From: Mycoplasmatota bacterium
GTDB lineage: Bacteria > Bacillota_I > Bacilli_A > Haloplasmatales > Haloplasmataceae
DNA: 64,000 nucleotides
Assembly (NCBI GenBank): GCA_018394295.1
Contig: CP074573.1
Span: 2,651,684-2,715,683, forward strand
Reading direction: 5' to 3'
Positions within the stretch are counted from its first letter, which is position 1. The number at the start of each line of letters is the position of its first letter. Shown piece after piece: positions 5,444 to 51,386 of this stretch. Both the position numbers and the translations under genes were made by a program. The notes beneath the pieces are model-generated. The model saw only the letters and a list, made by a program, of their open reading frames with translations, was not told where the DNA came from and made no database searches.

Positions 5444-6169
5444 TCATAAACATGCTTTTAATCTTTTTAAATCTAATATTTTAAAATAATTTCTATAAAA
5501 ATCTATAATTCCTTCTTCCTGCATCTTGATTAATTCTCTAGAAAGAGAAGGTCTAGACACCAATAAATACTCAGCTAATTCATTTCTTTTTAAAGGGATA
5601 TCAAAATGAACTTTATTATTCATTCGATATTGTCGAAGTAAATATGTACTAATCTTTTTTCTAATACTTTTTAATGAAAGAATCTCTACTTTTTTATTTA
5701 AAATCAAGGCTTTTTTTGCCACAATTTGAAGCATATTTTCAATCATTATTCTATGCCCATGACAAACCTTAGTACATATTCCAACAATTTTCTGAGGTGG
5801 CAAAAACAAAATAGTACAATCTGTATTAGCAACTACTGTTGCTAACCATACATCACTTGTAAAAGCAGCTACTTCTCCAAATAAATCTCCACTCTTTAAC
5901 CTACTCATTATCACTCTATCACCAGCTAATGAGTCTTTCCCAACAATAACCTCTCCTTCTAAAACGATACCTATTCCATTTAATTCCTCTTTTTCAATCG
6001 TTATTACATCCTTTTTATTGTAGATTTTTATACTTGGTGTTAAACAATTTAATATACGTCTTAGTTCATCCTTCTCTATACCTTTAAATAACTCAATCTT
6101 CATCAATTGATTGATCCATTTTTCATACATCCCCATCAACCTCACTTTATATAAGTTAATTTTAATCAT
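5444..6169 (-). CDS. Crp/Fnr-family transcriptional regulator (HcpR-like by context)
   Basis: N-terminal cNMP-binding-like domain (GDLFGEVAAF) and C-terminal HTH (RNELAEYLLVSRPSLSRELIKMQEEG). Located directly upstream of the hcp locus. Confidence 0.8.
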   Translation of the reverse strand: MIKINLYKVRLMGMYEKWINQLMKIELFKGIEKDELRRILNCLTPSIKIYNKKDVITIEKEELNGIGIVLEGEVIVGKDSLAGDRVIMSRLKSGDLFGEVAAFTSDVWLATVVANTDCTILFLPPQKIVGICTKVCHGHRIMIENMLQIVAKKALILNKKVEILSLKSIRKKISTYLLRQYRMNNKVHFDIPLKRNELAEYLLVSRPSLSRELIKMQEEGIIDFYRNYFKILDLKRLKACL

Positions 6170-6225
6170 ACATATTAAATCTGAATATCTATTATATTAT
6201 TATATAATAATTAATAATATATTTC

Positions 6226-6241
6226 TGTAACATATGTTACC
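6226..6241. promoter_or_regulatory. perfect palindrome TGTAACATATGTTACC (GTAAC-N4-GTTAC), candidate HcpR/Crp-Fnr operator
   Basis: 14-bp perfect inverted repeat ~57 nt upstream of the regulator start codon. Suggests autoregulation. Confidence 0.55.
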
Positions 6242-6262
6242 GATTTTAAAATATAATTTTTA

Positions 6263-7975: not shown

Positions 7976-8048
7976 TATTTATATTTTATATAAGAAGAGC
8001 CTGTCGTCTTTTTAATTTTTTTACAACTCCCCTTCAAAAAGTCAAAAA

Positions 8049-8079
8049 CCACTACTTATGATTTATCATAAATTAGTGG
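8049..8079 (-). terminator. rho-independent terminator after the FtsX-like permease gene
   Basis: Long imperfect palindrome ccactac ttatga..tcataa attagtgg followed by T-rich sequence on the minus strand. Confidence 0.5.
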
Positions 8080-8099
8080 CTATTCTCAGTTTTTAAGTA

Positions 8100-10094
8100 T
8101 CAATCTGAAATAATTTTCTTACACCGTTCATGAGTAAAAAGAATAAAAACAATATATATAATCATAAAAATTATAGAAGAAATGACGGTTGAATAAATAA
8201 AAGAATGAGCATCTACTGTCATCAAACTGTAGGAAGACATAGCGATTGTTCCAACTATACTATGAGAAATTGCGACGATTAACGGAAGTGAAAAATACAT
8301 AAATATCTGTTTGAAAATAGAACTGTGAACATCAGCTTTCTTCACACCAAGCTTATTCATAATTTCATAACACCTTTTATTATCCATTGTTTCTGTCATT
8401 TGCTGTAAGGACAATATAGAGGCTCCAACAATTAATAGAATACTTCCAATGAACAAACCTGTGAAAACATAAGAAGAGGCTTGCTTTAGGTTGTAATCCC
8501 TTTGATCACTTCTCAAAATAACCTGATGACCACCACTATAGCTTGCTATATAATTATATAGACCTTTATCACTGTTGCTTTCAAAGTCACTTTTCAACAT
8601 ATCGGTTCTTAATTCCTTGGTGTTAATAATCAAAGAAATATCATAGTTACCAATCTTTGAATTGATAAAATCTTCGTCTGATACTACTATTGTTACCCCA
8701 CCACCTATAACACCTCTAGAATCGTTAAGGGGCTCCAAATAGATAAGCTGATTCGGATTGAAAAGTTTTTTACTGCTTATCTTAACCTCTCTACAATTAC
8801 CAATAGATTGCATAACAGCCTTGTCTGCATGAAGCAAATATTCTCCTTGATTAATCAATACACTTTTATAACCTGAGATTTCTCGTACCTTATTATAATC
8901 AGATAGCATAATTAAACGTGTTGATATATCCTCAAAAAACGCATATTCATCACCCAGTTTGTAGGTTTTATGAGGATCTAAGAAGTAACTTAGGGTATAG
9001 TCTGTTCGATATAAAGGGAAACTATATTCTTTTTCGATAGTATAACCTTGTTCTTTAATATAATTTGTCACTTTGTCTATTGAAACATCGGGTTGTATTC
9101 CGCTAACTGATATGGAATATGGTGCAGTATATTTTAAATTTTCATCAATCCAAATATGTGCTGAAAAACCTAGATTAAGCATAACAAGTGTTAGGCTCAT
9201 TACAAATGAGATGATACTTAGTAAAATTCCATTTTGTCCTACTTTACTTGTAAGTTGTTTATTTGAAAAGAGATTTATTCCACTATACATTTTCTTTCTA
9301 TTATGACTAATTAAGAATGACATTACTGATGAGCCAAATAAAAAGATTCCAATGTGACCTAATAGTCCAATTCCAAACGCAATTTCTGTTGAGGTATCGG
9401 TGAAATCAATGTTTGGTTTTAACATTAAGATGTAAAAATATATGATTGCCACTATGCTTAAAACAAAACAAATAACAGAATAGTTGATAATTCCCTTTCT
9501 TTTTCTCTTTTTCAATATTGCTCTTTTTGATTTAACAATATTTATCAAATTTGCACGAGATATAATAAAATAGTTAAATATCGAAATGAGTACAAAGATA
9601 ATAAAAAATGTAAACAGTGTATTAATAAATGCAGTTCTTTCAAAAAGAATAGTACTATGTTGTATTTTAAGACCAAGCAATTTTATAATTAGTAAATCAA
9701 AGATTCGTGTTCCAAATATCCCTAAAACACAACCAGAAACAAAGGAAATAACACTTATTATAAGAGTTTCTAAGATCATCATAAGGTGAACCTGAGAATA
9801 TTTTAATCCAAGCATTAAATAAATACCAATCTCACGACTGCGTTTTTTTAAGATAAAATTGTTTGAATAAAGAGCAAGTCCTGTAACAATTAGCGTAATC
9901 GAAAGTGAAAGTTGCGTTAATATTCTTGTCAAATCCTCTACTGAATTTTCAGAAAACTCCTTCATAAAGGGTTGAAACTTAAGTAAATTGAATATATAGC
10001 TAAAAGAGACAGTAAGGGTTAAGGTAATGAAATAAATAGTATAATCATGGAAATTCTTTTTAACATTTTGGTACGATAGTTTAAATATCATCAT
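8100..10094 (-). CDS. ABC transporter permease, FtsX/MacB family with large extracellular domain (BceB-like)
   Basis: 664 aa with ~10 TM segments and a large loop between TM7 and TM8. Start overlaps the ATPase gene stop. Confidence 0.8.
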   Translation of the reverse strand: MMIFKLSYQNVKKNFHDYTIYFITLTLTVSFSYIFNLLKFQPFMKEFSENSVEDLTRILTQLSLSITLIVTGLALYSNNFILKKRSREIGIYLMLGLKYSQVHLMMILETLIISVISFVSGCVLGIFGTRIFDLLIIKLLGLKIQHSTILFERTAFINTLFTFFIIFVLISIFNYFIISRANLINIVKSKRAILKKRKRKGIINYSVICFVLSIVAIIYFYILMLKPNIDFTDTSTEIAFGIGLLGHIGIFLFGSSVMSFLISHNRKKMYSGINLFSNKQLTSKVGQNGILLSIISFVMSLTLVMLNLGFSAHIWIDENLKYTAPYSISVSGIQPDVSIDKVTNYIKEQGYTIEKEYSFPLYRTDYTLSYFLDPHKTYKLGDEYAFFEDISTRLIMLSDYNKVREISGYKSVLINQGEYLLHADKAVMQSIGNCREVKISSKKLFNPNQLIYLEPLNDSRGVIGGGVTIVVSDEDFINSKIGNYDISLIINTKELRTDMLKSDFESNSDKGLYNYIASYSGGHQVILRSDQRDYNLKQASSYVFTGLFIGSILLIVGASILSLQQMTETMDNKRCYEIMNKLGVKKADVHSSIFKQIFMYFSLPLIVAISHSIVGTIAMSSYSLMTVDAHSFIYSTVISSIIFMIIYIVFILFTHERCKKIISD

Positions 10095-10848
10095 TATTAC
10101 CGCCCTCTAGTACGGATATTGTATCAAGAATTTGTTCAAAAAATTCTCTTCTTGACCTATTCCCTTTTTCTGCACGAGTAAATACCCTTCCATCCCGAAT
10201 AAAAATAACACTATTGGCATAACTTGCAGCAACTGAGTCATGTGTTACCATTAAAACTGTAGTGTTAAGTTCGGAATTGATATATGATATTGTTTCAAGC
10301 AAAGTTTTAGAGGTTTTGGAATCAAGTGCTCCTGTAGGTTCATCTGCCAAAACAAGAGAAGGTTTGTTTATGATTGCTCTAGCTGCTGTTGCTCTTTGCT
10401 TTTGACCACCTGAAATCTCATAAGGGAATTTGTTTAATATATCCATTATGTCAAGCTTTTGTGCGATAGAATTCACCTGACTTTTTATTATTTTCTCATT
10501 GGCATGATTGATTGCAAGCGAAAATGCAATATTATCATAGATTGTTAAAGTATCAAGAAGATTAAAGTCCTGAAATATAAACCCCAATTCCTCACGTCTA
10601 AAATCAGAAGCCTTATTTTTATTTATCTTTGACACATCAATATCATTTATCAAAAGTTTTCCACTTGTAGGCTTATCAAGCGTGGAGAACATATTTAAAA
10701 GAGTTGTTTTACCACTTCCAGAAGCACCCATAATAGCGATAAACTCCCCCTCATAAACCCTAAGATCAATGCCATTTACAGCTTTAGTGATAGAGGTTCC
10801 TTTACCATAATATTTTTTTATGTTTTCTGCTTTTATTATTTGATTCAT
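10081..10848 (-). CDS. ABC transporter ATP-binding protein (BceA/MacB-type)
   Basis: GASGSGKTT Walker A, LSGGQKQR signature, Walker B LVLADEPTGALD, H-loop VTHD. Confidence 0.85.
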   Translation of the reverse strand: MNQIIKAENIKKYYGKGTSITKAVNGIDLRVYEGEFIAIMGASGSGKTTLLNMFSTLDKPTSGKLLINDIDVSKINKNKASDFRREELGFIFQDFNLLDTLTIYDNIAFSLAINHANEKIIKSQVNSIAQKLDIMDILNKFPYEISGGQKQRATAARAIINKPSLVLADEPTGALDSKTSKTLLETISYINSELNTTVLMVTHDSVAASYANSVIFIRDGRVFTRAEKGNRSRREFFEQILDTISVLEGGNNDDI

Positions 10849-10935
10849 ACTATTTTCACACCTACTTAAATACGTTTTTATTGATTTAATCTATTATATT
10901 TTAGCATTATCAAATTATATTAGAAATCGATTTTC

Positions 10936-10978
10936 CTTACAAAAAAAGAGGAACCTTTCATTTTTGAAAGATAACTCT
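10936..10978 (-). promoter_or_regulatory. conserved upstream element CTTACAAAA-N-ACCTTTCA-N5-GAAAGATAAC (candidate RR binding site/promoter of the ABC operon)
   Basis: Near-identical 43-bp element also found upstream of the acyltransferase gene (13912-13955). Contains the palindrome CTTTCA-N5-TGAAAG. Lies ~90-130 nt upstream of the ATPase start. Confidence 0.5.
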
Positions 10979-10983
10979 CATAA

Positions 10984-11985
10984 CTACGTTAACTGAAGTA
11001 CAGAAAATATAATTGATACAGTAGTTTTCTGTCTTTCAGAAGTAACAACAACCTTGTGTCCTAATCCATCACAGATTTTTTTAACAAGATAAAGTCCCAT
11101 ACCAGTACTATAACCGATGGCTCTACCATTTTGTCCTGTAAAACCTTTCTCAAATACTCTTTTAATATCTTGTGAAGGTATACCTTTTCCATTATTTGTG
11201 ATCGATAGAATAATCGAATGATCCCTTTTTTCTATTACGATAAAAACTTCTGGTTCGGTTTCATCACTGTATTTAACCGCATTGTCAAGAATTTGGCTGA
11301 TAACAAATTCAATCCACTTTGAATCAGTTAGTACTAATTCACTGTTTTGACAAATACTTAAATGTACATTTTTAGCAATAACCTGGCTTCTATGCTTATT
11401 AATCGCTTTCTTTACAACTGGAAGTAAAACAATTTCATTGACAAAATAATCTTTTTCAATGTTGTAGCTTCTAGCATAAAACAGTGCTTGCTCTACATAT
11501 TTTTCGATTATCTCATTTTCTTCTTTAATACTACGACTATCAGGGGTATCCGTTTTATCAGATATTAACTTAATAACAGATATAGGTAGCTTTATCTCAT
11601 GCACCCATCTTTCGATATACTCACGATATTCATCACGCATTTTTTCTATTTCAGCAATTTTATTATTATAGGAAATACAACTTCCTTCAATAATGTCATG
11701 ATAAATCTTGGTTTCCTCACTAAGTGATTCATCAATAAACTCACTTACTAAAGTTTTCTCATCAAGGGAATCAAAGCGATATAATAGATCATTATAGTAA
11801 TTTCGCTTTCTGATAAACCGAATAATGTGATATAGAATATTTAAAGATATCATAAATAGATTGATAATTAATATATCTTGTAAGGACAGATTAATCAACA
11901 TGAAAAATATAATAAGAAATATAAATGTACTTATTTGTAGAACAACTAACCATTTTTCATCTTTTAAATATGTTCTTAGTTTCAT
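10984..11985 (-). CDS. sensor histidine kinase, intramembrane-sensing type (BceS-like)
   Basis: Two N-terminal TM helices with no extracellular domain. H-box region, HATPase_c motifs (GTGMGL, N-box). Confidence 0.8.
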   Translation of the reverse strand: MKLRTYLKDEKWLVVLQISTFIFLIIFFMLINLSLQDILIINLFMISLNILYHIIRFIRKRNYYNDLLYRFDSLDEKTLVSEFIDESLSEETKIYHDIIEGSCISYNNKIAEIEKMRDEYREYIERWVHEIKLPISVIKLISDKTDTPDSRSIKEENEIIEKYVEQALFYARSYNIEKDYFVNEIVLLPVVKKAINKHRSQVIAKNVHLSICQNSELVLTDSKWIEFVISQILDNAVKYSDETEPEVFIVIEKRDHSIILSITNNGKGIPSQDIKRVFEKGFTGQNGRAIGYSTGMGLYLVKKICDGLGHKVVVTSERQKTTVSIIFSVLQLT

Positions 11986-12653
11986 TTTATTATATATCCT
12001 TGTCCACGTATAGTAGATATGATGTCATTTAGACCAATATCAGTAAGCTTTGAACGAAGTCTTGTAATATTAACTGACAAGGTATTTTCATCTACAAAAT
12101 CATCATTATCCCATAGTGTTTCTATCAGTCTACCACGGCTTACAATACTCCCCTTACTTTTTAAGAGAACAGCTAAAAGTCGTTGTTCATTTTTTGTAAG
12201 TTCAACTTTTTTATCTTTATATTCAAGAATGTTTGAAGCTGTATAAAGTTTTATACCATCAGTGGAAATCGTTTCACTCATTTGGGTTATTCCATAACTA
12301 CGCTTAAGTACTGCAGAAATTCTTGAAAGCAATACTTGATTGTCATAGGGTTTGGTGATGTAATCATCGCCACCCATAGTCATCGCCATCACCTCATCAG
12401 CAGTATTGTTTCGACTTGTCAGGAATATAATAGGCACATTTGAGATTTCTCTGATTTTTCTACAAAAATGGTATCCGTCAAAAGAAGGGAGGTTAATATC
12501 CAGTAATATAATATCTGGACGTTTTAATTTGTATTCTTCAAAAACATAATCAAAATCATCTATTCTATAAACTTCATAACCATACTTTTTAAGCAAGTAG
12601 CATAATTCGTTACATAGCTTGAGATTATCTTCAATAACAAGAATTTTATACAT
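11982..12653 (-). CDS. response regulator, OmpR/PhoB family (BceR-like)
   Basis: Receiver domain (DD..D phosphoacceptor region, K site) and C-terminal winged-helix (LT.NEQRLL...RGQGY). Confidence 0.85.
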   Translation of the reverse strand: MYKILVIEDNLKLCNELCYLLKKYGYEVYRIDDFDYVFEEYKLKRPDIILLDINLPSFDGYHFCRKIREISNVPIIFLTSRNNTADEVMAMTMGGDDYITKPYDNQVLLSRISAVLKRSYGITQMSETISTDGIKLYTASNILEYKDKKVELTKNEQRLLAVLLKSKGSIVSRGRLIETLWDNDDFVDENTLSVNITRLRSKLTDIGLNDIISTIRGQGYIIK

Positions 12654-12681
12654 TTTATACCTCCTTCGTCTATTGTTTTAT

Positions 12682-13938
12682 TTAATTACAGCATTCTGAA
12701 AGATTATTTCTACATATTATACCACAATATTTTTCCCATATAAACAAGTTAATATTCTGCATTCTTCCCCCTAAAACTAACGTACCTAATAGTACAACAC
12801 AAACAAAGACAAAATCATTTTCAATAAATAAATTATTGTTTCTAAATATATACATAACAATTCCGTGAGATAAGTAAATTTCATAGGATATACTACCTAA
12901 GTATTCCCACAGTTTATTATTAGGTGACTTTCGATTAAATACTAGGAGTATCATCACACAACTAAAAATAGTAATCAATTGTAAACAAAGGATAGACAAA
13001 GGCTTACCTAATATTTTATCCCCTAATGTTGGTGTTGCTTTTAATTCCGATATAGAGTATCCACTAAAAAAGTAACTAACAACTAATCCTAACAAGCATA
13101 AAGTAATACCACTAATTAAATAAAATATAAATCTTTTAGAGTTATTTGAAAAAAATTTTTGAAATTTGTTTTTATATACCGCCCAAAACATACCTATAAC
13201 AAAAGTAAAACATGAACTATACCACCAATATCCATATCCCAAAATAATACAAATAATCGCATAAACAACCATTCCTAAAAACATACTAACAATAATCATA
13301 TTGTAGCTTCTTTGAAACAATAACGCTATGATGTAAAATATAATATAGAAAACCAAGGTCGCCAACACATACCAAGAAAAGGCAACAATTGGTTCACCAT
13401 TAAACAGTGATAATATCACATCAAAAGTAGTGATAACTTCTCCAGTAATATTATAAAAAAATATATAAATTACGATGGTAATAATATATGGAAAAAGCAA
13501 TTTAGGTATTCTCTTCTTAATAAATGATTCTAAATAATCTTCTTTATTAATGTATTGAGTCATCAAACCATATCCAGAGATAAAGAAAAATACACCTACT
13601 GATTCAATTCCCAAAATTGAAAAACAAGAAAATACAAGTCCCATATCTGTAAATAATGACAAATGGTGTAGCACAATTATAACCGAAAAAAAGCCTTTTA
13701 TTTTTATTGAATTGTTTTGTGATAAGACATCATTAACCTCAGTATATGATTTATTTAGTCTGACTTTTTTAACAAGAAATAAAATAGTTAAAATAAATAT
13801 AATATCATAAATCATTTTCTCCCTACTTTCAAACAAGTAATACCATACCTGTAATCCAATAATTTTATAATTTATTTTAACAATGCTACTGTATAAGTAA
13901 AATCGATTTATCTTACAAAATAAAGGGTTACCTTTCAA
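12682..13938 (-). CDS. acyltransferase family 3 integral membrane protein (O-acyltransferase). True start probably at M ~13816 (MIYDII...)
   Basis: ~10 TM helices typical of the Acyl_transf_3 fold. Internal ATG at ~13816 is preceded by an AGGGAG RBS. Shares the upstream motif with the Bce-like operon. Confidence 0.55.
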   Translation of the reverse strand: MKGNPLFCKINRFYLYSSIVKINYKIIGLQVWYYLFESREKMIYDIIFILTILFLVKKVRLNKSYTEVNDVLSQNNSIKIKGFFSVIIVLHHLSLFTDMGLVFSCFSILGIESVGVFFFISGYGLMTQYINKEDYLESFIKKRIPKLLFPYIITIVIYIFFYNITGEVITTFDVILSLFNGEPIVAFSWYVLATLVFYIIFYIIALLFQRSYNMIIVSMFLGMVVYAIICIILGYGYWWYSSCFTFVIGMFWAVYKNKFQKFFSNNSKRFIFYLISGITLCLLGLVVSYFFSGYSISELKATPTLGDKILGKPLSILCLQLITIFSCVMILLVFNRKSPNNKLWEYLGSISYEIYLSHGIVMYIFRNNNLFIENDFVFVCVVLLGTLVLGGRMQNINLFIWEKYCGIICRNNLSECCN

Positions 13939-13955
13939 AAACGAAAGATAACCCT
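13912..13955 (-). promoter_or_regulatory. second copy of the CTTACAAAA...CCTTTCA-N-GAAAGATAAC element (also forms a 15-bp-stem hairpin)
   Basis: ~85% identical to 10936-10978. Lies ~100 nt upstream of the probable acyltransferase start. Confidence 0.5.
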
Positions 13956-14017
13956 TTGTTCTAGTTATTATATTTAGATCAACTCTACTAATAAATTATG
14001 TATGTTACACCATGCTC

Positions 14018-14293
14018 TTACTTTTTAGTCTTATTAATATTTATAACATTAGACACAATTGTAATGCCACCAACAATTAAACACCCTATTCCAAATAAAT
14101 TTCGTTCTAACACTACTCCAATTGAACCGACAACAATAAGCCCAACACCTATACTATTTCCAATAACTGATCCAATGAAAGATACTTTCTTTGAAGGATG
14201 AATTAATTTTTCTACCGTGTCCATGGATTTACTCAAAGTATTTTGTGAAATATTTTTTGTTGCTTCAATTAGATTTTTATTGTATTTATTCAT
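14018..14293 (-). CDS. small hydrophobic/membrane protein (91 aa), hypothetical
   Basis: GGAGG RBS 8 nt upstream of the ATG. Gly/Ile-rich TM segments. Start codon 23 nt from the IS6-like left end. Confidence 0.35.
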   Translation of the reverse strand: MNKYNKNLIEATKNISQNTLSKSMDTVEKLIHPSKKVSFIGSVIGNSIGVGLIVVGSIGVVLERNLFGIGCLIVGGITIVSNVININKTKK

Positions 14294-14504
14294 ATTATCA
14301 CCTCCATATAGTAGTTGGTAGTGTAAAAGTTTTTCTTAAAACCAATACAAAACCTTATATATATATTATTTTTTATTATATAATGAGTTCCCCCCCTGTG
14401 TTTGGGAGGTTGCTCGTTATATTTTTTTAACCCTTTATATACAAAAAGATAGATACACCTGATATAATTTAATCACCACAAAAAAACTATAAGGAGTATC
14501 TATC

Positions 14505-14768
14505 ATGGTTAAAATTATATCAGTTCTTTCAGTATTTTTAAAGTATTTAAACAAACTACTTTATAAATTTATTCTTTTTCTAGATTCACACATTATTTCT
14601 ACACCTAGTTCTAAGTCATCTGGCACTTATTATGAACCTTTTAGGAAGTTCACTGTTGATGGTGAACCTATTATTCAGAAGGTTGAAAAGCTAGATTATC
14701 AAGAATTGCTTAATGTGTATTTTTTAAAGTACAATAAGCATCTCAAACCAGTTACTAGACGAATATAA
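14505..14768 (+). pseudogene. IS6-like transposase, N-terminal segment interrupted by IS21 insertion
   Basis: First 85 aa identical or near-identical to the intact-length copies at 55564 and 31229. The reading frame ends 2 codons after the IS21 junction. Confidence 0.8.
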
Positions 14769-14816
14769 ATGTCAAGATAATAATGTACATTTTTGATCAT
14801 TTAATAATGTACATTT

Positions 14817-15566
14817 TTAATTTTCTTCGATAAAGTAATTTTTAAGTCGATAAGATTTACCTGTAATGTTAACTACATGAGCATGATGAAGAACTCGATC
14901 AAGGATAGCGTTAGCTATTACAGGGTCTTTAAAAATATCATCCCAATTAGAAAAGTTAATGTTGGTTGTAATTATCGTACTTCGTTTTTCATATCGTCTA
15001 TCTATTAGCTGAAAGAACAATTTAGAATCTTCTTTGTCGATAGGTAAATAGCCTAGTTCATCAATAATCAATAATTTGTACTTGGTAAAATGCTTGAGTC
15101 TATCGTTTAAGCGATTTTCTAACTTAGCTTTCTTTAACTGGGCTATCAAATCATGACATTTTATAAAGTAAGTTGATATACGCTTCTTCGCAGCGGATAT
15201 ACCTATTGATGTAGATAAGTGGGTTTTACCAACACCACTCGTTCCCATAAAAACGATGTTCTCGCATTGATGGATGAATCGATGACTCTCAAAATCTAAT
15301 ATTTGTTCTTTGTTTATATTTTCTTGGAAAGAGAAGTCAAAATCCTTCAATTCTTTGTAATGGGGGAATGCCCCTACTTTAACCATAGCTTTGATCATAC
15401 TAGCCTCTTTATAATCAATTTCATATGTTGTTAATTTAATAAGCCCATCAACGAAAGATAGATTATTTTTATTAATAAAGTTAATAGTATCGTCTAAATG
15501 ATTTTTCATTTCTTTTAATTTTAAATATTCTAAATTTGCGATTAATTGCTCGTGTGCTGTTGTCAT
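14817..15566 (-). CDS. istB: IS21-family helper ATPase IstB
   Basis: GTSGVGKTHL Walker A, LLIIDELGYLP Walker B, RYEKRSTIITTN and ILDRVLHH motifs. Confidence 0.85.
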   Translation of the reverse strand: MTTAHEQLIANLEYLKLKEMKNHLDDTINFINKNNLSFVDGLIKLTTYEIDYKEASMIKAMVKVGAFPHYKELKDFDFSFQENINKEQILDFESHRFIHQCENIVFMGTSGVGKTHLSTSIGISAAKKRISTYFIKCHDLIAQLKKAKLENRLNDRLKHFTKYKLLIIDELGYLPIDKEDSKLFFQLIDRRYEKRSTIITTNINFSNWDDIFKDPVIANAILDRVLHHAHVVNITGKSYRLKNYFIEEN

Positions 15567-16866
15567 TATTTATAACGTTCTCCTATCTTATTAAGATTTT
15601 CTTTTGCGAATTTTTGAATATCTTCATCATCAAAAGATAGAGTCATTCTGGCAATCTGTATATAGTGCTCCTCTAAATAATTCAACTTTTTACTACTTAA
15701 CGAGTGTATTGTCACCAAATTTGTGTTAGAATATATGTGAATTTGATTATCATATACCTGCAGTTGAAGTGTACGGTTCATATATTTAGGTGGTACTGAA
15801 TATTGATTACCCTTATAACTAATCATTGATGATGAGTTTACTTTCGCTGTTATGGTTTTAATCAAGTATAGATTTCTTATCGTGTCTCGTGGAGGGGACT
15901 GTAAGAAATCTTTTTCATTTTGTAGGCCAAATAGTGGAATCATATCATAAGCTCTATGTAACCTACTGTTTTCTCTGTTGTTTATTTCTTGTACCTTTTT
16001 CACTAATTGTTCATAATTTAAATCACCACTATATGCTTTTAATTCATCTAAAATTTTCATAGGGGATTCAACCTTTGCTTTTGTATTTGGTCTGCCTGCG
16101 ATACAGGGTTTAACTTCAAATCCATAATCATTAGCGAATTGTTGAAATTTATTATTTACTTTTCCTTTTGAATATTCAGTTCTTGGTACATCCATTACTG
16201 TTTTCATATTATCAGTTAGTATTTCATGAGGTACACCACCAAATGCTTGAAATGCTTCGTCTATGAAGTTAAACAGTATGTCTTGAGATTTAGTTAATGA
16301 TAATCTATAAACTCTAAACCTTGAGTAACTCAGTAATAAAACGAATATATTGATTGTGATGACTTCTCCTGTATCAAGCACGAAATTCATTGATTCTTTC
16401 CAATCTAGCTGTGCTTGTTGACCTTTATCTGTTTCATAACGTATAACTGAAGGTGCTTTGATAGCACTTTTTTCTTTTGATCAAAGTACTCTTGAAATTC
16501 TGGTGTTTTACTTATATATCGCCTAAATGATGATTCAGCACATTTTAGTCCATAATTATCACTAAGATACTGCCAAAGCACTTTTTTATATTCAAAAACT
16601 TTTATTTTATCATTGAGTAAATCTTTAATTAAGTAGTAATAATCATCTACTATACTTGATCGTTTTCTATTTTTAGACTTCTCATAACCATTAATGTACT
16701 TACTTATCGTTCTTCTATCAACATTTAACTCTCTTGCTAATCGACTTTTATTTACCTTTAAGTTTGTTGTTTCCATTAAATTCTTTAATACCTTCAAATC
16801 ATTTAATTTCTGTATTTCTATATTAGTATCTATTTCATAGTTTAGTATCATAAGTTGTCCTCCCAT
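15566..16866 (-). pseudogene. istA: IS21-family transposase IstA with a single frameshift
   Basis: N-terminal HTH part (16405-16866) and DDE catalytic part (15566-16390) lie in different frames. The frameshift maps to an A/T homopolymer run near 16470-16480. Confidence 0.65.
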
Positions 16867-16952
16867 TGATTAACTATGAAATTATACTATATTAACTGTA
16901 CATTTTAAAGTGATCACTTCTGTACATATCTATCTTATCATTTATAGACGAA

Positions 16953-18121
16953 GGCCATCAAAACTTGATTTCAAAGGAAATTGCCCTATTTGTGGTGCTC
17001 CTCATGATTACATCTATGAAAATAATATTAAATCAAAACAGTTACTTTGTAAGGTATGTAGTCATACATTTACCTTGAATAATGATTTTCTTGAAAAGAT
17101 TATTTTAAAATGTCCTCATTGTTCAAAGAACCTTGAAAGAATTAAAGACCGTAATAGTTATATTATTTATAAATGTAGACATAAGAAATGTTCCTTTTAT
17201 TTAGATAAATTAAAGAAATTAACACCAGATCAATTAAAACAATTCAAAAAGAAACCAGGTAAATTTAAACTTCATTATATCTATCGTGCTTTCGATATTA
17301 ACTTTGATTCCCTAGAACGTGACTCTATGTCTAATTTAAATATGAAGGTTGATTTAGCCAATATCAGACATTCTAAGCATACTCTAGGCTTAATCTTAAC
17401 GTATTACGTTAACTACGGTTTGTCGAGTAGGAAAACTGCAGCTATCATGTATGATATTCACCAAGTTAAGATTTCCCATCAAACCGTGATGAATTATGCA
17501 AATAGTGTTTCTACAATGATTCGTCCCTTACTTGAAAATTACCCATATGATTTATCATCTGACCTTTGTGGGGATGAAACATATGTTAGGGTTAAGGGGA
17601 AGAAGCATTATATCTTCTTCTTCTCAGATAAAATTAAAAAGATTATTACTTCTTATCAAGTTTTTAGTAAACGTGATACTTTTTCAGCAGTCGTTTCACT
17701 ATATCAAACATTCAAAAAATACACTGAACTACCTAAGAATTTGAAAGTAGTTGTGGATGGTAATCCTATTTACAACGTTGCATGGTCATACTTTAAAAGC
17801 ATGAACATAAATTTCGATTTATTTCAAGTTATAGGACTCACTAATAACACGAAAACAGACAAGGATTACCGTCCATTTAAACAAGTAACTGAGCGTTTAA
17901 ATAGAACTTTCAAAGACGATTATATCCAAATGAACGGATTTGGTAATATCAAGAGCGCTAATGCTTATATGGTCTTGTTTACAACGTTTTTTAACTTTCT
18001 AAGACCACATAAATCGTTAGGTTATAACCCACCTGTTAAATTAGAAGAGTTTGAGGATTTACCTCATATGCCAAGCAAATGGCTTTCTCTAATAGATATG
18101 AGTTACTCTTATATAAACTAA
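16953..18121 (+). pseudogene. IS6-like transposase, C-terminal segment (resumes after IS21)
   Basis: Continues ...PSKLDFKGNCPICGAP (Zn-finger CxxC x2, CPHC) and the DDE region DETYVRVKGKKHY / VDGNPIY / RPHKSLGYNPP. Confidence 0.8.
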
Positions 18122-18431
18122 TTTTTAACTAAGGAGTATCTCTATATAAGCGTATTTAAATATGCCTTTTTTATTTGCATATAATGATATAGTAAGATAA
18201 AACTGAGTATTGTAATCTAACATACTACAATTCCAGTTTTTTTTATTTTGGGTCATAGAGTTATCATGAGTTTTCATAATTTATTTGACACTACCTAGTA
18301 GTTAAATATTAAAATAATTTTTAACCTTCTACCTCAGCTCTATCTTTTCTAACCATTACTAGTATTGTTGAATAAATCACTGACTATTTCATCTTACATA
18401 CAAACCGTTAGTATGTAAAAATGCAAAAATA

Positions 18432-21190: not shown

Positions 21191-21485
21191 AAAGTTGTTC
21201 TCCTTACTAAGTTATTAAATTTTATTTCAAGACAACTAGTTGTCTTGAAATAACTTACTATGTCTACTATACTATTTTTAGAGCTCCATGACAACTATTC
21301 TAACACAGAGGGTAAACGCTATACTAAATTTTGTATCCAATGTTTCACTATCTATATCACTTACTATATTCTAAAGATCAAATGTTATTATAGTATTTTC
21401 ATAAGTCATTAAGTGTGTATGATGTGCAATTGGTGCATCATTACTAACAACAGATAATTATAATATATAATGGATTTTATATATT

Positions 21486-22004
21486 TTACAAATTCAGTTT
21501 ATTACACCATGCTTTTACTTCTTTATGTCCATTTAAAATAATAACTTGTTTACCTAACTTTTCTGCTTCATTAAATAGTAATTGACGCTCGATTTTCTTC
21601 TTTGGATATCCAGATAATACATATTTCACAACTTCCATATTATATTCTTCGTAACATCCCTCGGAAAGTTCCGGACGTGCATCATATTTATGTTTAAAAT
21701 ATCTTCTCAGTCCTCTAAATAAGTATATAAATCGATTTATATTTATATATATTATAGTGTCACAATTTTCGAATCTACCGTCTTTCTTTGATGCACTGAA
21801 TTTGTTTCCATCAAATATCCATTTATCTTTTTCTGATAACTCCTTAATTATATCAATCTGTTCTTTCTCTGATCGCTCTTGCCAGTTTTCCTTCCAGGTA
21901 ATACTGTCTCTATGATATACAGAAATATTAAATTTGTTTTCAAGCTTATTTGCTAAGGTAGTTTTCCCAGAACCAGACGAACCAGTTATCCATATCCTTT
22001 GCAT
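21486..22004 (-). CDS. small P-loop NTPase/kinase (AAA_33/topology-modulation-protein-like)
   Basis: ITGSSGSGKTT Walker A. 172 aa. ~80% identical paralog at 26267-26785. Confidence 0.6.
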   Translation of the reverse strand: MQRIWITGSSGSGKTTLANKLENKFNISVYHRDSITWKENWQERSEKEQIDIIKELSEKDKWIFDGNKFSASKKDGRFENCDTIIYININRFIYLFRGLRRYFKHKYDARPELSEGCYEEYNMEVVKYVLSGYPKKKIERQLLFNEAEKLGKQVIILNGHKEVKAWCNKLNL

Positions 22005-22074
22005 TACGACCTCCTACAAATATTGACTGTGATTATAATATCAATTATAATTGACATTACTATTTACTTAATTA

Positions 22075-22108
22075 TATCAAAAAGATACTGAGTTAACAGT
22101 ACCTTTTG
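22075..22108. repeat. dispersed 35-bp palindromic repeat, copy 2
   Basis: TATCAAAAAGATACTGAGTTAACAGTACCTTTTG, between the NTF2-like fragment and the kinase gene. Confidence 0.6.
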
Positions 22109-22193
22109 TTTATTATAATTATATTTAAACAATAAAATAATTTATTATTAGAGGTTTCTGTTTAATTATGGAATCCTATCTAAAAGTTTATAT

Positions 22194-22433
22194 TTATTCA
22201 TCTTGCCATAACATATTTGAAATCTTCCAACCACTTCCATCATTTAATAAATGGATTAAGTTTACACCTCTTTTTATAATTTCTTCATGTTCTTTAGACT
22301 TTTTCGCTTCATACTTACTATAAACATTAGCTATATTCTTATAAGTTTTAATCTCATAGTTTAATCCATATTCATAAAAATTATGCTCTCTAAGGAAATT
22401 TCTAACCTTTAAAATATATTGATTAACATCCAT
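22194..22433 (-). pseudogene. N-terminally truncated NTF2/SnoaL-like protein (paralog of 27002-27409)
   Basis: 79 aa, ~90% identical to the C-terminal 79 aa of the 135-aa paralog. The 5' part is deleted. Confidence 0.55.
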
Positions 22434-22640
22434 TTGTAATAGTTTACCTATATGGATCCATCGAATTCTGCAAAATAATTAATTCTGTTCCTAAAGAATC
22501 TGCTATTTTCTTATTTATCTTTACAAACCATTTACCAAATTCACTTCCAACCATTACCACAGCATATTATATTTTTTATCAGCTGATTTTTTCATATTTT
22601 TTCAAGCACTAATATGAGAAAATAAGATCACTTAAATAAC
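22434..22640 (-). pseudogene. remnants of alpha/beta-hydrolase gene and downstream sequence (deleted copy of 27560-28860)
   Basis: ~110 bp nearly identical to part of the hydrolase gene at 27570-27680, followed by ~80 bp matching 28760-28850. Internal deletions. Confidence 0.5.
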
Positions 22641-25822: not shown

Positions 25823-26266
25823 TCCCTTAAGGAGATTTTCATTAGGTAAATTAGTTTCTATATTATAATTCTTTAACTTAGTTGCATTTTTTGTTCTTCT
25901 TTAATTTTTGTCAAATCGGTAAATATACCTAAATATTTATCAACTTTACTGTTAGATTTATTTTTCATCACGTATATGAACAGTTTTTTGGGATACAACA
26001 TACCATCTTTTTTTCTGTCCCACAACTCTCCCTTCCAAATGTAATGCATAAAGTAAACAACTGTTGTTTCTGAACTTAATCCAAATTTTTTTTCATCTAA
26101 TTGGCTTCCTATAAGCATTTTCAGTAGTGCCTATTCAACAAGTTGTCTTTCTTCAAATTTCATAGCGCAACTCCCTTTAATAGGTTTATTTTATACTCTA
26201 TAAGATTTCTTTAATAATCAATAAGTATCTTTGTAAAAGTATACTTAATATTGGCTCTTATAATAT

Positions 26267-26785
26267 TTATAAATTCAGTTTATTACACCATGCTCTTACT
26301 TCTTTACGTCCATTCAATATAATTACTTCTTTCCCTAACTTTCTAGCTTCATTAAATAGTAATTGTCGCTCATATTTCTTTTTTGGATAGCCAAATAATA
26401 CATATTTTATTGCTTCCATATTATATTCTTCATAACATCCTTCTGAAAATTCAGGTCTTGTATGATGTCTATGTTTTAAATATCTTCTTACTCCTCTATA
26501 TAAACATAAAAATCGATTTATATTTATATGTATTATCATGTCACAATTATCAAATCTACCATCATTCTTTGAAGCACTGAATTTATTACCATCAAATATC
26601 CATTTATCTTTTTCTGATATCTCTTTTATTATTTCAATCTGTTCTTTCTCTGAACGCTCTTGCCAATTTTCCTTCCAGGTAATTCTGTCTCTATGATATA
26701 CAGGAATATTTAATTTGTTTCCAAGTTTATTCGCGATAGTAGTTTTCCCTGAACCAGACGAACCTGTTATCCATATCCTATACAT
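26267..26785 (-). CDS. small P-loop NTPase/kinase (paralog of 21486-22004)
   Basis: ITGSSGSGKTT Walker A. 172 aa. Confidence 0.6.
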   Translation of the reverse strand: MYRIWITGSSGSGKTTIANKLGNKLNIPVYHRDRITWKENWQERSEKEQIEIIKEISEKDKWIFDGNKFSASKNDGRFDNCDMIIHININRFLCLYRGVRRYLKHRHHTRPEFSEGCYEEYNMEAIKYVLFGYPKKKYERQLLFNEARKLGKEVIILNGRKEVRAWCNKLNL

Positions 26786-26865
26786 TTACGATCTCCTACA
26801 TATATTATTTTTTTGACTGTGATTTGATACTAATAATAAATGAATTTACTATTTACTTAATTATA

Positions 26866-26900
26866 TCTAAAAAGATACTGAATTAACAGTACCTTTTGTT
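26866..26900. repeat. dispersed 35-bp palindromic repeat, copy 3
   Basis: TATCTAAAAAGATACTGAATTAACAGTACCTTTTG. Confidence 0.6.
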
Positions 26901-27001
26901 ATTAATATTTCTTTTTAAACAATATAATAATTAGTAATAAAAAGATTAATAATTTCAGTTTAATGGAAACCTCGCTATCTTTACAATATCTAAATAAATT
27001 T

Positions 27002-27409
27002 TTATTCATCTTGCCATAACATATTTGAAATCTTCCAACCACTTCCGTCATTAAATAAATGGATTAAGTTTACACCTCTTTTTATAATTTCTTCATGTTC
27101 TTTAGACTTTTTCGCTTCATACATACTATAAACATTAGCTATATTCTTATAAGTTTTAATCTCATAGTTTAATCCATATTCATAAAAATCATGCTCTTTA
27201 AGGAAATTGTTAACCTTTAAAATATATTGATTTACATCAATTTGTAATGACAAAACTTCATTTTCTTCATTTATTATTATTGGTTTTATTATTGCGTCTT
27301 TTGTAAATAGATTTTTAAAATAAACCCAATCCCGTTTTTCATTAGATTTTCCTGAAATTATCCTGTAAAACTCATTTATAACTTTTGTTATCCTCTGTTT
27401 TTCTGACAA
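27002..27409 (-). CDS. NTF2/SnoaL-like small protein (135 aa)
   Basis: Intact ORF. Paralog of the truncated 22194-22433 copy. Confidence 0.45.
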   Translation of the reverse strand: MSEKQRITKVINEFYRIISGKSNEKRDWVYFKNLFTKDAIIKPIIINEENEVLSLQIDVNQYILKVNNFLKEHDFYEYGLNYEIKTYKNIANVYSMYEAKKSKEHEEIIKRGVNLIHLFNDGSGWKISNMLWQDE

Positions 27410-27511
27410 TTAAATCCCTCCATTTTATAAATTTCACCCTCTGTGTAACCATTTCTGATAATCGTATACTTCAGGTTTCTTATTGTTTTCCCATAAAATT
27501 TCTTCTAATAT

Positions 27512-28297
27512 TTATTCATCGAGAAATTCAAGTACATTTTTATTAAATTCATCTGGATTTACTAAATTAGATGGATCCATCGAATTCTGTAAAATAATTA
27601 AATCTGTTCCTAAAGAATCTGCTATTTTCTTATTTATCTTTACAAACCATTTACCAAATTCACTTCCAACCATTACCATAGCATTAAATTTATGGTTGTT
27701 TAATTCATCTAAAATAGCTATCTGATTAATCGCCTTTCTTGACAAAACCATTTGTTTCAGATCAACCTCTAGGCAGATTTCCTTAAAATATTTTTTAGCT
27801 CTATAAGCAAAATCAGCTTTGTAAGTAGACTCCATTCCTTTTGCTAATGCTTTGTTCCCTAAAATTTTAAATAATTTATATCCTATTACCGATGAAAAAC
27901 CAAGTATTCTTTCAGGGATTGTTTTTAACTCTCCAAAACTATCAGAAATTATTATTTTATCTACTAAATCAGGATAGTTTACAATAAATGATAAAGCTAT
28001 TACTCCTCCCATACTCACACCGATTATAGATACTTTATGTATATTTAAATGTATTAGTAATTCCTCTATTTGTTTTGTCCAATCAGAGAGTGTTAATTTA
28101 TTAACCCTTGAAGATTTTCCATGTGCAATCATATCAGGAACAATAATATGATATCCTTTTGAAGCATACAATTCTGTTTGAGGTCTCCACATTTGATTGT
28201 CTGCACCTATTCCATGAATTAAAAGTATAGTAGGATCGCATTTTTCCCCATACTCCTCATAATATGTTCTTAAACCCTTTTGATTTTCAAATATCAT
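27512..28297 (-). CDS. alpha/beta-fold hydrolase
   Basis: HG oxyanion motif (LLIHGIGAD), nucleophile elbow GVSMGG, C-terminal His region. Confidence 0.8.
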   Translation of the reverse strand: MIFENQKGLRTYYEEYGEKCDPTILLIHGIGADNQMWRPQTELYASKGYHIIVPDMIAHGKSSRVNKLTLSDWTKQIEELLIHLNIHKVSIIGVSMGGVIALSFIVNYPDLVDKIIISDSFGELKTIPERILGFSSVIGYKLFKILGNKALAKGMESTYKADFAYRAKKYFKEICLEVDLKQMVLSRKAINQIAILDELNNHKFNAMVMVGSEFGKWFVKINKKIADSLGTDLIILQNSMDPSNLVNPDEFNKNVLEFLDE

Positions 28298-29061: not shown

Positions 29062-29627
29062 TTCTATTATAAACTTGGATTCAACCTGCCCTAGACCTAC
29101 TGAATCTGGTGGTTTTTTATTTCTCTAATTTTTTAACGATATATAAATCATCTATAATATTGATATATATATAAAATTATAACATAATTAAATCGTAATT
29201 AAAATTTCTATATGATTAACTCTGAATGTTAATGTGGTGCAGTTAAATGCTTTTTATCTGTATACCGGAATTTTAATTTACCAAATTGGGGGTTCGATTC
29301 CCCACAACATCAGGAATGTTGCTATGGTTTAGATCTGACTTTTAATCAGAAATAAAAAAAAAGAATAGAAATTTTAAGTTAATATTTCCATTAATATTTT
29401 TATATTAATAAAAAAGTAAATTACCTTGTATAAATTAGGATACCGTAGACATTTTATATTTACCAACACTTATTTATCCTAACGTTTATGTCTATTAATA
29501 CCAATGGCTAAACCACTTGTGTCCGTAAATATATAATGCTACTTAATAATTTATCCGTTATTTACTTTTGAAATATTCGCTTATTATTTCTATAGGCATT
29601 TACCCTCAGGGGATTATCTTATAAAAA

Positions 29628-31418
29628 GGTAGTGTCAAATAAATTATGAAAACTCATAATAACTCTATGACCCAAAATAAAAAAAACTGGAATTGTAGTA
29701 TGTTAGATTACAATACTCAGTTTTATCTTACTATATCATTATATGCAAATAAAAAAGGCATATTTAAATACGCTTATATAGAGATACTCCTTAGTTAAAA
29801 ATTAGTTTATATAAGAGTAACTCATATCTATTAGAGAAAGCCATTTGCTTGGCATATGGGGTAAATCCTCAAACTCTTCTAATTTAACAGGTGGGTTATA
29901 ACCTAACGATTTATGTGGTCTTAGGAAGTTAAAAAACGTTGTAAATAAGACCATATAAGTGTTAGCACTCTTGATGTTACCAAAGCCGTTCATTTGGATA
30001 TAATCGTCTTTGAAAGTTCTATTTAACCGCTCAGTTACTTGTTTAAATGGACGATAATCCTTGTCTGTTTCCGTGTTATTAGTGAGTCCTATAACTTGAA
30101 ATAAATCGAAATTTATGTTCATGCTTTTAAAGTATGATCATGCAGCGTTGTAAATAGGGTTACCATCCACAACTATTTTCAAATTCTTAGGTAGTTCAGT
30201 GTATTTTTTGAATGTTTGATATAGTGAAACAACTGCAGAAAAAGTATCACGTTTACTAAAAACTTGATAAGAAGTAATAATCTTTTTAATTTTATCTGAG
30301 AAGAAGAAGATATAATGCTTCTTCCCCTTAACCCTAACATATGTTTCATCCCCACAAAGGTCAGATGATAAATCATATGGGTAATTTTCAAGTAAGGGAC
30401 GAATCATTGTAGAAACACTATTTGCATAATTCATCACGGTTTGATGGGAAATCTTAACTTGGTGAATATCATACATGATAGCTGCAGTTTTCCTACTCGA
30501 CAAACCGTAGTTAACGTAATACGTTAAGATTAAGCCTAGAGTATGCTTAGAGTGTCTGATATTGGCTAAATCAACCTTCATATTTAAATTAGACATAGAG
30601 TCACGTTCTAGTGAATCAAAGTTAATATCGAAAGCACGATAGATATAATGAAGTTTAAATTTACCTGGTTTTTTTTTATATTGTTTTAATTGATCAAATG
30701 ATAATTTCTTTAATTTATCTAAATAAAAGGAACATTTCTTATGTCTGCATTTATAAATAATATAACTATTACGGTCTTTAATTCTTTCAAGGTTCTTTGA
30801 ACAATGAGGACATTTTAAAATAATCTTTTCAAGAAAATCATTATTCAAGGTAAATGTATGACTACATACCTTACAAAGTAATTGTTTTGATTTAATATTA
30901 TTTTCATAGATATATTTATGAGGAGCACCACAAATAGGGCAATTTCCTTTAAAATCAAGTTTTGATGGATTTCTTCTAGAAACAGGTTTTAATTGCTTAT
31001 TGTGCTTTAAAAAATACTCATTAAGCAATTCTTGATAATCTAGCTTTTCAATCTTTTGAATAATAGGTTCACCATCAACAGTGAACTTCCTAAAAGGTTC
31101 ATAATAAGTGCCAGATGACTTAGAACTAGGTGTAGAAATAATGTAGGAATCTAGAAAAAGAATAAATTTATAAAGTAGTTTGTTTAAAGACTTTAAAAAT
31201 ACTGAAAGAACTGATATAATTTTAACCATGATAGATACCCCCTGTATGGTTGGTTGTGGTGACTTAATTATATCAGGGGTATCTATCTTTTTGTATATAA
31301 AGGGTTAAAAAAATATAACGAGAAACCTCCCAAACACAGGGGGGGAACTCATTATATAATAAAAAATAATATATATATAAGGTTTTGTATAGGGTTTAAG
31401 AAAAACTTTTACACTGCC
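29628..31418 (-). mobile_element. IS6/IS26-like insertion sequence copy B (inverted relative to copy A)
   Basis: IRs GGCAGTGTAAAAG / GGTAGTGTCAAAT. Perfect 8-bp TSD TATAAAAA (29620-29627 and 31419-31426). ~1.79 kb. Confidence 0.8.
29802..31229 (-). pseudogene. IS6-like transposase with internal nonsense mutation (TGG to TGA at the ...NPIYNAAW codon)
   Basis: Two ORFs (30138-31229 and 29802-30122) in the same frame, separated by a single stop where the other copies encode Trp. Confidence 0.75.
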
Positions 31419-31441
31419 TATAAAAATAAGGGAGTGGGATA

Positions 31442-41556: not shown

Positions 41557-41557
41557 A

Positions 41558-42232
41558 CTATTTCTCCAATCTATACCCTAAACCTCGAATTGTTTTAATT
41601 TCTTCTTCACCAACTTTATTTCTCAACTTACTGATACATACTCGTATGGTATTATCATCAACTACATATTCTTCTCCCCATCCAGAATCAAATATTTGCT
41701 CTTTAGTAAATACTCTTCCTGGTGACTCCATAAACAACTTTAACACTTTGTATTCAACAGAAGTCAAGTCTATTTTTTTATCATCTTTATATAATACGCA
41801 TTGACTTGTATCAAGAATTAAATCCCTAACTTTAATTTCTGTGATATTATCTGTTTTCAACTGATTTAGGTTATAGAAACGTCTTAAATTTGCCTTTACT
41901 CTTGCAGCCACTTCCATTGGATCAAAGGGTTTTGTTATATAGTCATCTGCACCGAGCTCTAAACCAAATATTTTATCAGCTGTTTCAACTTTTGCTGAAA
42001 TAATCATAATAGGAATATTATTTGATACTCTTATTTTTTTTATTAATTCAAATCCATTTAATTTAGGCATCATAATATCTACAATAGCTAAATCAATCTC
42101 ATTTTCTTCTAGTACACCTATAGCTGCTTCCCCATCATTAGCCTCATATATTTTGATATCATCTTTTTCAAGATATAACCGCAAAAGTTTTATTATATCA
42201 CTTTCATCATCTGCGATTAGAATTTTGTACAT
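41558..42232 (-). CDS. response regulator, OmpR/PhoB family
   Basis: Receiver domain (DDESDI..D..MPKLNG..K) and winged-helix trans_reg_C. Confidence 0.85.
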   Translation of the reverse strand: MYKILIADDESDIIKLLRLYLEKDDIKIYEANDGEAAIGVLEENEIDLAIVDIMMPKLNGFELIKKIRVSNNIPIMIISAKVETADKIFGLELGADDYITKPFDPMEVAARVKANLRRFYNLNQLKTDNITEIKVRDLILDTSQCVLYKDDKKIDLTSVEYKVLKLFMESPGRVFTKEQIFDSGWGEEYVVDDNTIRVCISKLRNKVGEEEIKTIRGLGYRLEK

Positions 42233-42258
42233 TATGTAACCTCCTTAAAATACTATTA

Positions 42259-51274: not shown

Positions 51275-51386
51275 TCTTTTATCTCCTCTCTACATAGAAA
51301 ATTCTTGTTTTACTACTAGACATAACTTTATAAGATGCATTATGTCAAAATCTGCTTAACTGAGATTCTAAACCACATTTTTTGCT

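Follow-up and report, generated by a model that had tools for sequence, protein, structure and literature searches.

A predicted promoter element shared by a BceAB-like transporter operon and an Acyl_transf_3 gene in a Mycoplasmatota bacterium: a predicted operator that may double as a terminator

The subject of this study is a 64-kb stretch of contig CP074573.1 from a Mycoplasmatota bacterium (positions 2,651,684 to 2,715,683; hereafter the window, meaning the whole 64,000 nucleotides analysed), and in particular a repeated element found there in two copies, one upstream of an ABC transporter operon (copy 1) and one upstream of an acyltransferase gene (copy 2), within a module resembling BceRS–BceAB. 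All of the module genes lie on the minus strand, and the order of transcription is the gene for a protein of 91 amino acids (aa), copy 2, the acyltransferase, the regulator, the kinase, copy 1, the ABC ATPase and the permease. The genes are as follows.

8100..10094, minus strand: BceB-type permease, 664 aa; Pfam FtsX
10081..10848, minus strand: ABC ATPase, BceA-like; Pfam ABC_tran, E = 7e-34
10984..11985, minus strand: histidine kinase, 333 aa, BceS-like; HATPase_c domain
11982..12653, minus strand: response regulator, OmpR family, BceR-like group; Response_reg and Trans_reg_C
12682..13815, minus strand: acyltransferase, 377-aa membrane protein; Acyl_transf_3 domain only; ATG at 13815 preceded by AGGGAG
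14018..14293, minus strand: upstream gene, 91-aa membrane protein; placed outside the module

The gene assignments of an earlier note on this DNA, namely a BceRS–BceAB-like module and a family-3 acyltransferase, were upheld by matches from Pfam, NCBIfam and phmmer. Residues 3–655 of the permease align with BceB (PDB entry 7tcg) and PsdB (PDB entry 9ugg) of Bacillus subtilis at E ~5e-23 (phmmer), and the ABC ATPase gene lies directly upstream of the permease gene with an overlap of 14 nucleotides (nt). The kinase has two N-terminal hydrophobic helices in its first ~60 residues and, as read from its sequence, no external or sensor domain, which is the arrangement of an intramembrane-sensing kinase; its top NCBIfam match is the Bce-type kinase SapS, over the full length and with 233 bits, which is under the curated equivalog cut-off of 550. 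The regulator and kinase genes share a 4-nt overlap, and the permease, ABC ATPase, kinase and regulator each show the properties of a member of a Bce-type module.

The acyltransferase matches Pfam PF01757 with E = 2.7e-27 and 96 bits (cut-off 31) over profile positions 7–320 of 326. The match spans residues 39–348 and Pfam shows no second domain, so that the protein is without an SGNH/GDSL domain; it had no match in NCBIfam and no related solved structure. A 418-aa open reading frame (ORF) with a TTG start, present in the mechanical ORF list, was rejected as the acyltransferase gene, the orthologue in the closest relative (L001, described below) starting to align at the ATG at 13815, that is, at residue 1. 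From the acyltransferase stop to the regulator start there is a gap of 28 nt on the same strand, containing no hairpin. Because the one homologue of the 91-aa protein (60% identical) sits in an unrelated context, its gene is, on this comparison, not a module member.

Each copy of the element lies directly 5′ of a gene. The two strings that the earlier note had reported as a shared element of 43–44 nt are both present, with lengths of 40 nt (10936–10975) and 41 nt (13912–13952). Their identity, put there at ~85%, is 32 of 41 aligned columns (78%), with five mismatches falling in the loop, and their near ends are 87 and 96 nt from the starts at 10848 and 13815 in place of the ~95–130 nt given. 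The inverted repeat described as CTTTCA-N5-TGAAAG is there too, but its spacer is N4 and one arm of copy 2 reads CGAAAG on the plus strand. The similarity between the copies spans ~85 nt on the minus strand (10980–10896 and 13957–13872). When copy 1 was aligned locally against the rest of the window, copy 2 was the best alignment, with a score of 53, compared with a mean of 35.5, a standard deviation of 3.5 and a maximum of 47 in 100 shuffles. A search of the window for TTTTGTAAGNNAAATCGATTT with up to three mismatches gave two sites only plus a palindromic echo at copy 2, where 0.22 was expected and the shuffles all stayed below 3. An nhmmer profile of five elements likewise matched two places only (E = 3e-19 and 8e-19; next unrelated match E = 3) in a search of the window that is circular, since both window sites are included in the profile. 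A third copy was found in the 64 kb by neither the motif nor the profile search.

Further afield, megablast of 8000–14400 against a plasmid collection gave no match, and Rfam had nothing in the window at the gathering score. Collections were scanned with the pattern CTTTC-N6-GAAAG-N12-16-TGTAAG-NN-AAATCGA. In the genome collection, where the source genome was not found, the single match, in a Saprospiraceae metagenome-assembled genome, looks like chance and was set aside; in the metagenome collection the scan gave a relic on two contigs (L014 and L015, described below) and two matches that look like coding sequence and were judged to be chance.

The anatomy of the two copies was read on the minus (coding) strand, positions relative to the start taking the −10 hexamer as −12 to −7.

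10954..10971, no strand assigned: copy 1 core inverted repeat, TCTTTCA-AAAA-TGAAAGG; predicted main regulator site, centre ~−71.5
13931..13948, no strand assigned: copy 2 core inverted repeat, TCTTTCG-TTTT-TGAAAGG; predicted main regulator site
10927..10941, minus strand: copy 1 second motif, TGTAAG-GAA-AATCGA; half-site-like, abuts the −35, ~−50 to −36
13903..13917, minus strand: copy 2 second motif, TGTAAG-ATA-AATCGA
10898..10926, minus strand: copy 1 core promoter predicted for the ABC operon; −35 TTTCTA, weak (10926–10921), 17-nt spacer, TGc-TAAAAT (10906–10898)
13874..13902, minus strand: copy 2 predicted core promoter of the acyltransferase gene; −35 TTTTAC (13902–13897), 17-nt spacer, TGt-TAAAAT (13882–13874)
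12716..12744, minus strand: TTTATA-17-TGgTATAAT, a candidate constitutive promoter lying within the acyltransferase gene at its 3′ end; from a consensus scan only

The gap from the repeat to the TGTAAG motif is 12 nt in copy 1 and 13 nt in copy 2, the half-site-like motif of copy 1 lying 19–20 nt downstream of the matching repeat arm; TGTAAG occupies −50 to −45 and AATCGA −41 to −36. From this layout we infer transcription starts near 10891 (copy 1) and 13867 (copy 2). The −35 hexamers are poor, in keeping with promoters that depend on an activator. An alternative copy 1 promoter, TTGTAA-17-TATAAT (10942–10914), was rejected because it is not kept in copy 2 or in the relatives, whereas TGn-TAAAAT is kept in all. 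Copy 2 (13892–13917) also contains a larger imperfect palindrome, TGTAAG-AT-AAATCGATTT-TA-CTTATA around AAATCGATTT, which is conserved neither in copy 1 nor in L001.

For comparison, the contexts of the closest regulator homologues were fetched, among them those of L001, L010, L002, L004 and L007. In the closest relative, L001, the regulator is 74% and the acyltransferase 53% identical to those of the window, the gene order is the same (acyltransferase, regulator, kinase, ABC ATPase and permease) and the element is carried at both positions, between kinase and ABC genes and ahead of the acyltransferase gene. Upstream of the L001 acyltransferase gene the similarity to the window starts at the left arm of the repeat (L001 2871), and the gap between the L001 acyltransferase and regulator genes contains TTGAAC-17-TATAAT, a possible counterpart of the window's candidate promoter at 12744–12716. 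A feature of L001 with no equivalent in the window is an ORF of ~49 codons with a good ribosome-binding site (~6105–6253) that separates the ABC ATPase gene from the Bce-type promoter. L010, L002, L004 and L007, with regulators that are 59–64% identical, are without the acyltransferase, and their transporter promoters have the same geometry. Two near-identical metagenome contigs from the scan, L014 (3604–3688, minus strand) and L015 (480–690, plus strand), carry the relic, a stretch of 86 nt that is 88% identical to copy 2 and is followed only by an acyltransferase fragment (aa 212–244), with no Bce genes within the fetched loci. In all, nine promoters from six lineages (the two window copies, two L001 copies, L014, L010, L002, L004 and L007) share a common geometry base for base: the repeat, 12–13 nt, [T/A]GT[A/T]AG-N3-AATC[G/A]A, 6 nt, 17 nt and then TAnnnT. 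The spacing from AATCGA through 6 and 17 nt to the hexamer is identical in nine of the nine.

The BceR-like box is described as an inverted repeat around ACA-N4-TGT (bioRxiv 10.1101/2022.11.16.516778, citing Dintner 2011), and its consensus has been given as AnnTTACnAnnnnGTnAG (PMC10858260). The repeats of L010, L002, L004, L007 and L020 are this published box, the first four respectively reading TCTAACA-AAAA-TGTAATA, TCTTACG-ATAT-TGTAAGA, TCTTACA-ATAT-TGTAAGA and CCTTACA-AAAC-TGTAAGT. The repeat of the window sits exactly where relatives with regulators 59–64% identical carry the canonical box. GTTATCTTTCAAAAATGAAAG of the window aligns with GTTATCTAACAAAAATGTAAT of L010, the copy 1 repeat being matched base for base with the L010 repeat, and the 7-4-7 layout, the position and the flanking bases agree with the boxes of L010, L002, L004 and L007. 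In the window copies, L001 and L014 the core is TCA-N4-TGA, so the repeat is not a literal instance of ACA-N4-TGT; a symmetric A-to-T and T-to-A change affects both half-sites and is shared by all copies of the window, by L001 and by the L014/L015 relic. Because canonical BceR-type boxes occupy the same position in the relatives, the repeat of the window looks like a positional homologue of the regulator's operator with a variant core. The AATCGA motif, strongly conserved beside the −35, may form part of a secondary regulator site; main and secondary sites of this kind were reportedly described by Fang and colleagues in 2017.

On the coding strand both copies also fold into hairpins.

10946..10979, minus strand: copy 1 hairpin, outer arms GAGAG..CUCUU, then a U7 tract that stops close to 10942; resembles an intrinsic terminator placed behind the kinase gene
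13922..13957, minus strand: copy 2 hairpin, 16 pairs including two that are G-U only on the minus strand, then UUUAUUUUG; resembles an intrinsic terminator of the 91-aa gene

The copy 2 hairpin, for which the earlier note had proposed a 15-bp stem, was confirmed with one more pair at −23.1 kcal/mol (z = −5.6) and was matched in the terminator scan. The copy 1 hairpin has −12.9 kcal/mol (z = −2.4), with an interior loop and the U-run directly 3′ of the stem. Both therefore combine a stable stem-loop with a U-rich tract downstream of a same-strand gene, as intrinsic terminators do, termination itself being a prediction. The copy between the kinase and ABC genes of L001 forms a perfect stem of −21.4 kcal/mol (z = −7.5). 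Common to these three are U-runs, G-U pairs that can form only in the coding strand and outer arms that pair although they are not the same from copy to copy; such G-U pairs and divergent but pairing arms would fit selection acting on the RNA. The L001 acyltransferase copy and the L014/L015 relic, in contrast, reach −7.7 and −7.9 kcal/mol (z = −1.5 and −0.8), with no significant fold, no extended stem and no U-run, and keep the 6–7 bp core repeat and all of the downstream motifs. Because these two keep the motifs without terminator features, the conserved unit appears to be a promoter with its operator rather than a terminator. Relatives with the canonical box have a separate terminator just upstream of it. 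We conclude from these foldings that, in the lineage of the window, the operator palindrome would double as a terminator stem wherever a same-strand gene ends just upstream. A terminator role had been offered in the earlier note as an alternative to the operator for copy 2; such a role is indicated at both copies, as an addition compatible with the operator and not as its competitor.

Taken together, sequence architecture, conservation, synteny and folding make it likely that the two elements are response-regulator-dependent promoters that also serve as terminators, and that they bring the acyltransferase gene into the Bce regulon, to which the regulator and kinase genes would probably be added through read-through. 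The earlier proposal that the repeat is the operator of the regulator and that the acyltransferase shares its regulon thus gains support from the position of the box in the relatives and from the presence of both copies in L001. In the mechanism envisaged, the phosphorylated regulator (11982–12653) would bind the 7-4-7 inverted repeat near −71.5 and probably also the TGTAAG-N3-AATCGA motif abutting the weak −35, and would recruit RNA polymerase to the extended −10 (TGnTAAAAT). Copy 1 would then drive the BceAB-like transporter genes and copy 2 the Acyl_transf_3 gene. Because the 28-nt gap holds no hairpin, transcripts from copy 2 would probably extend through the regulator and kinase genes as far as the copy 1 hairpin, giving positive feedback. 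The copy-specific outer arms and the U-run would make the repeat an RNA terminator for the kinase gene at copy 1 and for the 91-aa gene at copy 2, and these terminators would shield the inducible promoters from read-through. The candidate promoter inside the acyltransferase 3′ end could provide basal expression of the regulator and kinase genes, so that the circuit would consist of basal sensor genes, an inducible transporter, an inducible acyltransferase and positive feedback on the two-component system. A peptide antibiotic binding a lipid II cycle intermediate would raise both the transporter and the acyltransferase, and the latter presumably O-acylates an envelope glycan, judging from its family.

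Several observations weigh against this interpretation. The core departs from the consensus at a position reported as essential, the TCA form is carried by three independent lineages only, and a comparison of the regulators revealed no matching lineage-specific change in the recognition helix that would explain the TCA core. Within the helix, the near relatives can be told apart by T or N in VNI[T/N]R, a candidate for co-variation with the box type that was rejected because the outgroup P0024 has T together with the canonical box. A link with the acyltransferase is confined to the window and L001, apart from the degraded relic on L014/L015, and more distant acyltransferase homologues (31–39% identical; three contexts examined) are not adjacent to Bce modules; on these three contexts a general linkage of such acyltransferases with Bce modules was rejected. 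Beyond L001 the nearest acyltransferase relatives are at most 39% identical, and on this evidence the enzyme belongs to a rare sub-lineage. As for the hairpins, the simple terminator scan did not list copy 1, and covariation with five sequences is weak, with 27 of 500 shuffles reaching the observed score. Finally, binding, the transcript and induction are matters that we infer from the sequence, as are the start sites, termination and the substrate of the enzyme.

Three other explanations can be set beside shared regulator-dependent promoters. If the elements were only intrinsic terminators of the kinase and 91-aa genes, alike through copying and bound by no regulator, then the coding-strand hairpins and the U-runs that follow them would be accounted for, as would G-U pairing confined to coding-strand RNA and outer arms that differ yet pair. 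However, the two copies remain similar for ~45 nt beyond the U-run, as far as the −10 and including TGTAAG-N3-AATCGA; in L001 the acyltransferase copy, like the L014 relic, retains the core repeat and the downstream motifs without the long stem or the U-run; and the relatives have their canonical BceR box in the same place and, upstream of it, a terminator distinct from it. Together these points make this explanation improbable. Slightly less so, but still unlikely, is that the promoters do share an operator and are bound by another regulator, at the AAATCGATTT palindrome or at the TCA-type repeat, or are constitutive. The difference from the BceR consensus, unexplained by any change in the recognition helix, speaks for another factor, as does the strong conservation of AATCGA overlapping the −35 region; yet the architecture always accompanies Bce-type regulator, kinase and ABC genes (regulators 59–100% identical), the TCA form occurs only beside Bce genes or their relic, and the poor −35 hexamers are what activator dependence would predict.

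That the element is a small dispersed repeat, like a miniature inverted-repeat transposable element or a repetitive extragenic palindromic sequence (MITE- or REP-like), which landed twice by chance, we regard as very improbable. Its palindromic character and intergenic position in a region rich in insertion sequences would suit such an origin, but there are only two copies in 64 kb, the collection scans revealed no dispersed family, only the L014/L015 relic and chance matches within coding sequence, and the copies lie at orthologous positions in L001 despite diverged flanks.

Regulator-dependent promoters of this kind have close counterparts in known systems. BceRS–BceAB and PsdRS–PsdAB of B. 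subtilis are built from the same set of four genes, for a regulator of the OmpR type, an intramembrane-sensing kinase, an ABC ATPase and a permease of the BceB type, and PbceA and PpsdA are likewise regulator-dependent promoters between the kinase and ABC genes, with a 7-4-7 repeat upstream of a weak −35 and, reportedly, a second half-site-like motif nearer the promoter. The window differs from them in its core, TCA-N4-TGA and not ACA-N4-TGT, and in a second promoter copy that would serve a neighbouring acyltransferase gene and probably the two-component genes too; its operator appears fused with a terminator hairpin, where the relatives have a separate terminator. Published work presents the B. 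subtilis Bce circuit as an insulated one that targets the transporter (PMC11009047). Elsewhere, envelope-modification genes, dlt and mprF among them, are under the control of Bce-type regulators (PMC3128592, PMC10858260; reviewed in PMC11009047): GraR of Staphylococcus aureus (GraRS–VraFG) has dlt and mprF as targets, and its predicted regulon includes a ykrP-like ‘probable acyltransferase’ (PMC3128592), ApsR/PsdR of Lacticaseibacillus paracasei (ApsRS/PsdRS) has an extended regulon (PMC10858260) and SapR of Enterococcus faecalis (SapRS) has dlt as a target (bioRxiv 10.1101/2022.11.16.516778). In all three, as predicted here, one palindromic box stands before the transporter and before envelope-modification genes (dlt, mprF, derAB). 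The predicted extra target of the window differs in being an Acyl_transf_3-only enzyme whose gene directly precedes the regulator gene on the same strand, and not dlt or mprF elsewhere in the genome.

O-Acetyltransferases of the OatA type, which modify wall glycan, are Acyl_transf_3 proteins under envelope-stress control by sigma-V or CesSR-type systems, and OatA carries a C-terminal SGNH domain. The acyltransferase of the window resembles OatA as an Acyl_transf_3-family membrane enzyme under (here predicted) envelope-stress control, but it consists of the membrane domain only (377 aa, compared with ~600 aa for OatA with Acyl_transf_3 and C-terminal SGNH/GDSL domains) and is thus not of OatA type. 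As predicted from its sequence features, the circuit fits the documented Bce-type regulons, with the changed core, the operator–terminator fusion and the position of the Acyl_transf_3 gene ahead of the regulator gene as its variant features.

The reading offered here gives a concrete regulon prediction for a little-studied or uncultured low-GC bacterium, in which a membrane acyltransferase, besides the transporter, appears to answer to a Bce-type circuit that senses antimicrobial peptides; it extends existing models and overturns none. If true, an Acyl_transf_3-only enzyme would join the short list of Bce-controlled envelope modifications (dlt and mprF), and the locus would offer a natural operator-core variant for studying the specificity of BceR-like regulators, as well as an example of an operator and a terminator sharing one palindrome. 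A more far-reaching scenario, which we put forward tentatively and hold to be doubtful, is that this lineage re-tuned the Bce operator from ACA-N4-TGT to TCA-N4-TGA, fused it with the terminator of the preceding gene and duplicated the cassette, so that an Acyl_transf_3 enzyme standing on its own was recruited as a new resistance determinant under Bce control, with two-component feedback. In that scenario, if the changed core alters regulator specificity, it would also be a natural example of insulation between paralogous Bce circuits.

Elsewhere in the window, a second OmpR-type two-component system lies on the minus strand within 40645–44172 (regulator 41558–42232 and kinase 40645–41556), directly downstream of a gene for a 637-aa protein with a Beta-lactamase domain (42259–44172), and may be another envelope-stress unit. 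The presence of the Bce module, which targets lipid II cycle intermediates, and of this nearby protein resembling Beta-lactamases and penicillin-binding proteins suggests that the source organism makes a cell wall, unlike classical mycoplasmas.

An insertion sequence (IS) of ~1.8 kb is present in three copies that are 94–98% identical (14289–18296, 29627–31450 and 55347–56662), with the transposase domains DDE_Tnp_IS240 and rve_3; the first copy is interrupted by an IS21-like istA/istB pair (14817–16866). It ends ~25 nt upstream of the start of the 91-aa gene, and outward transcription from it would meet the copy 2 hairpin. A duplicated block (21456–22565 and 26237–27684) is 83–96% identical in pieces, with a 172-aa ORF in each, and the G+C content is 0.35–0.37 at 50001–54000 compared with 0.24–0.31 elsewhere in the window.

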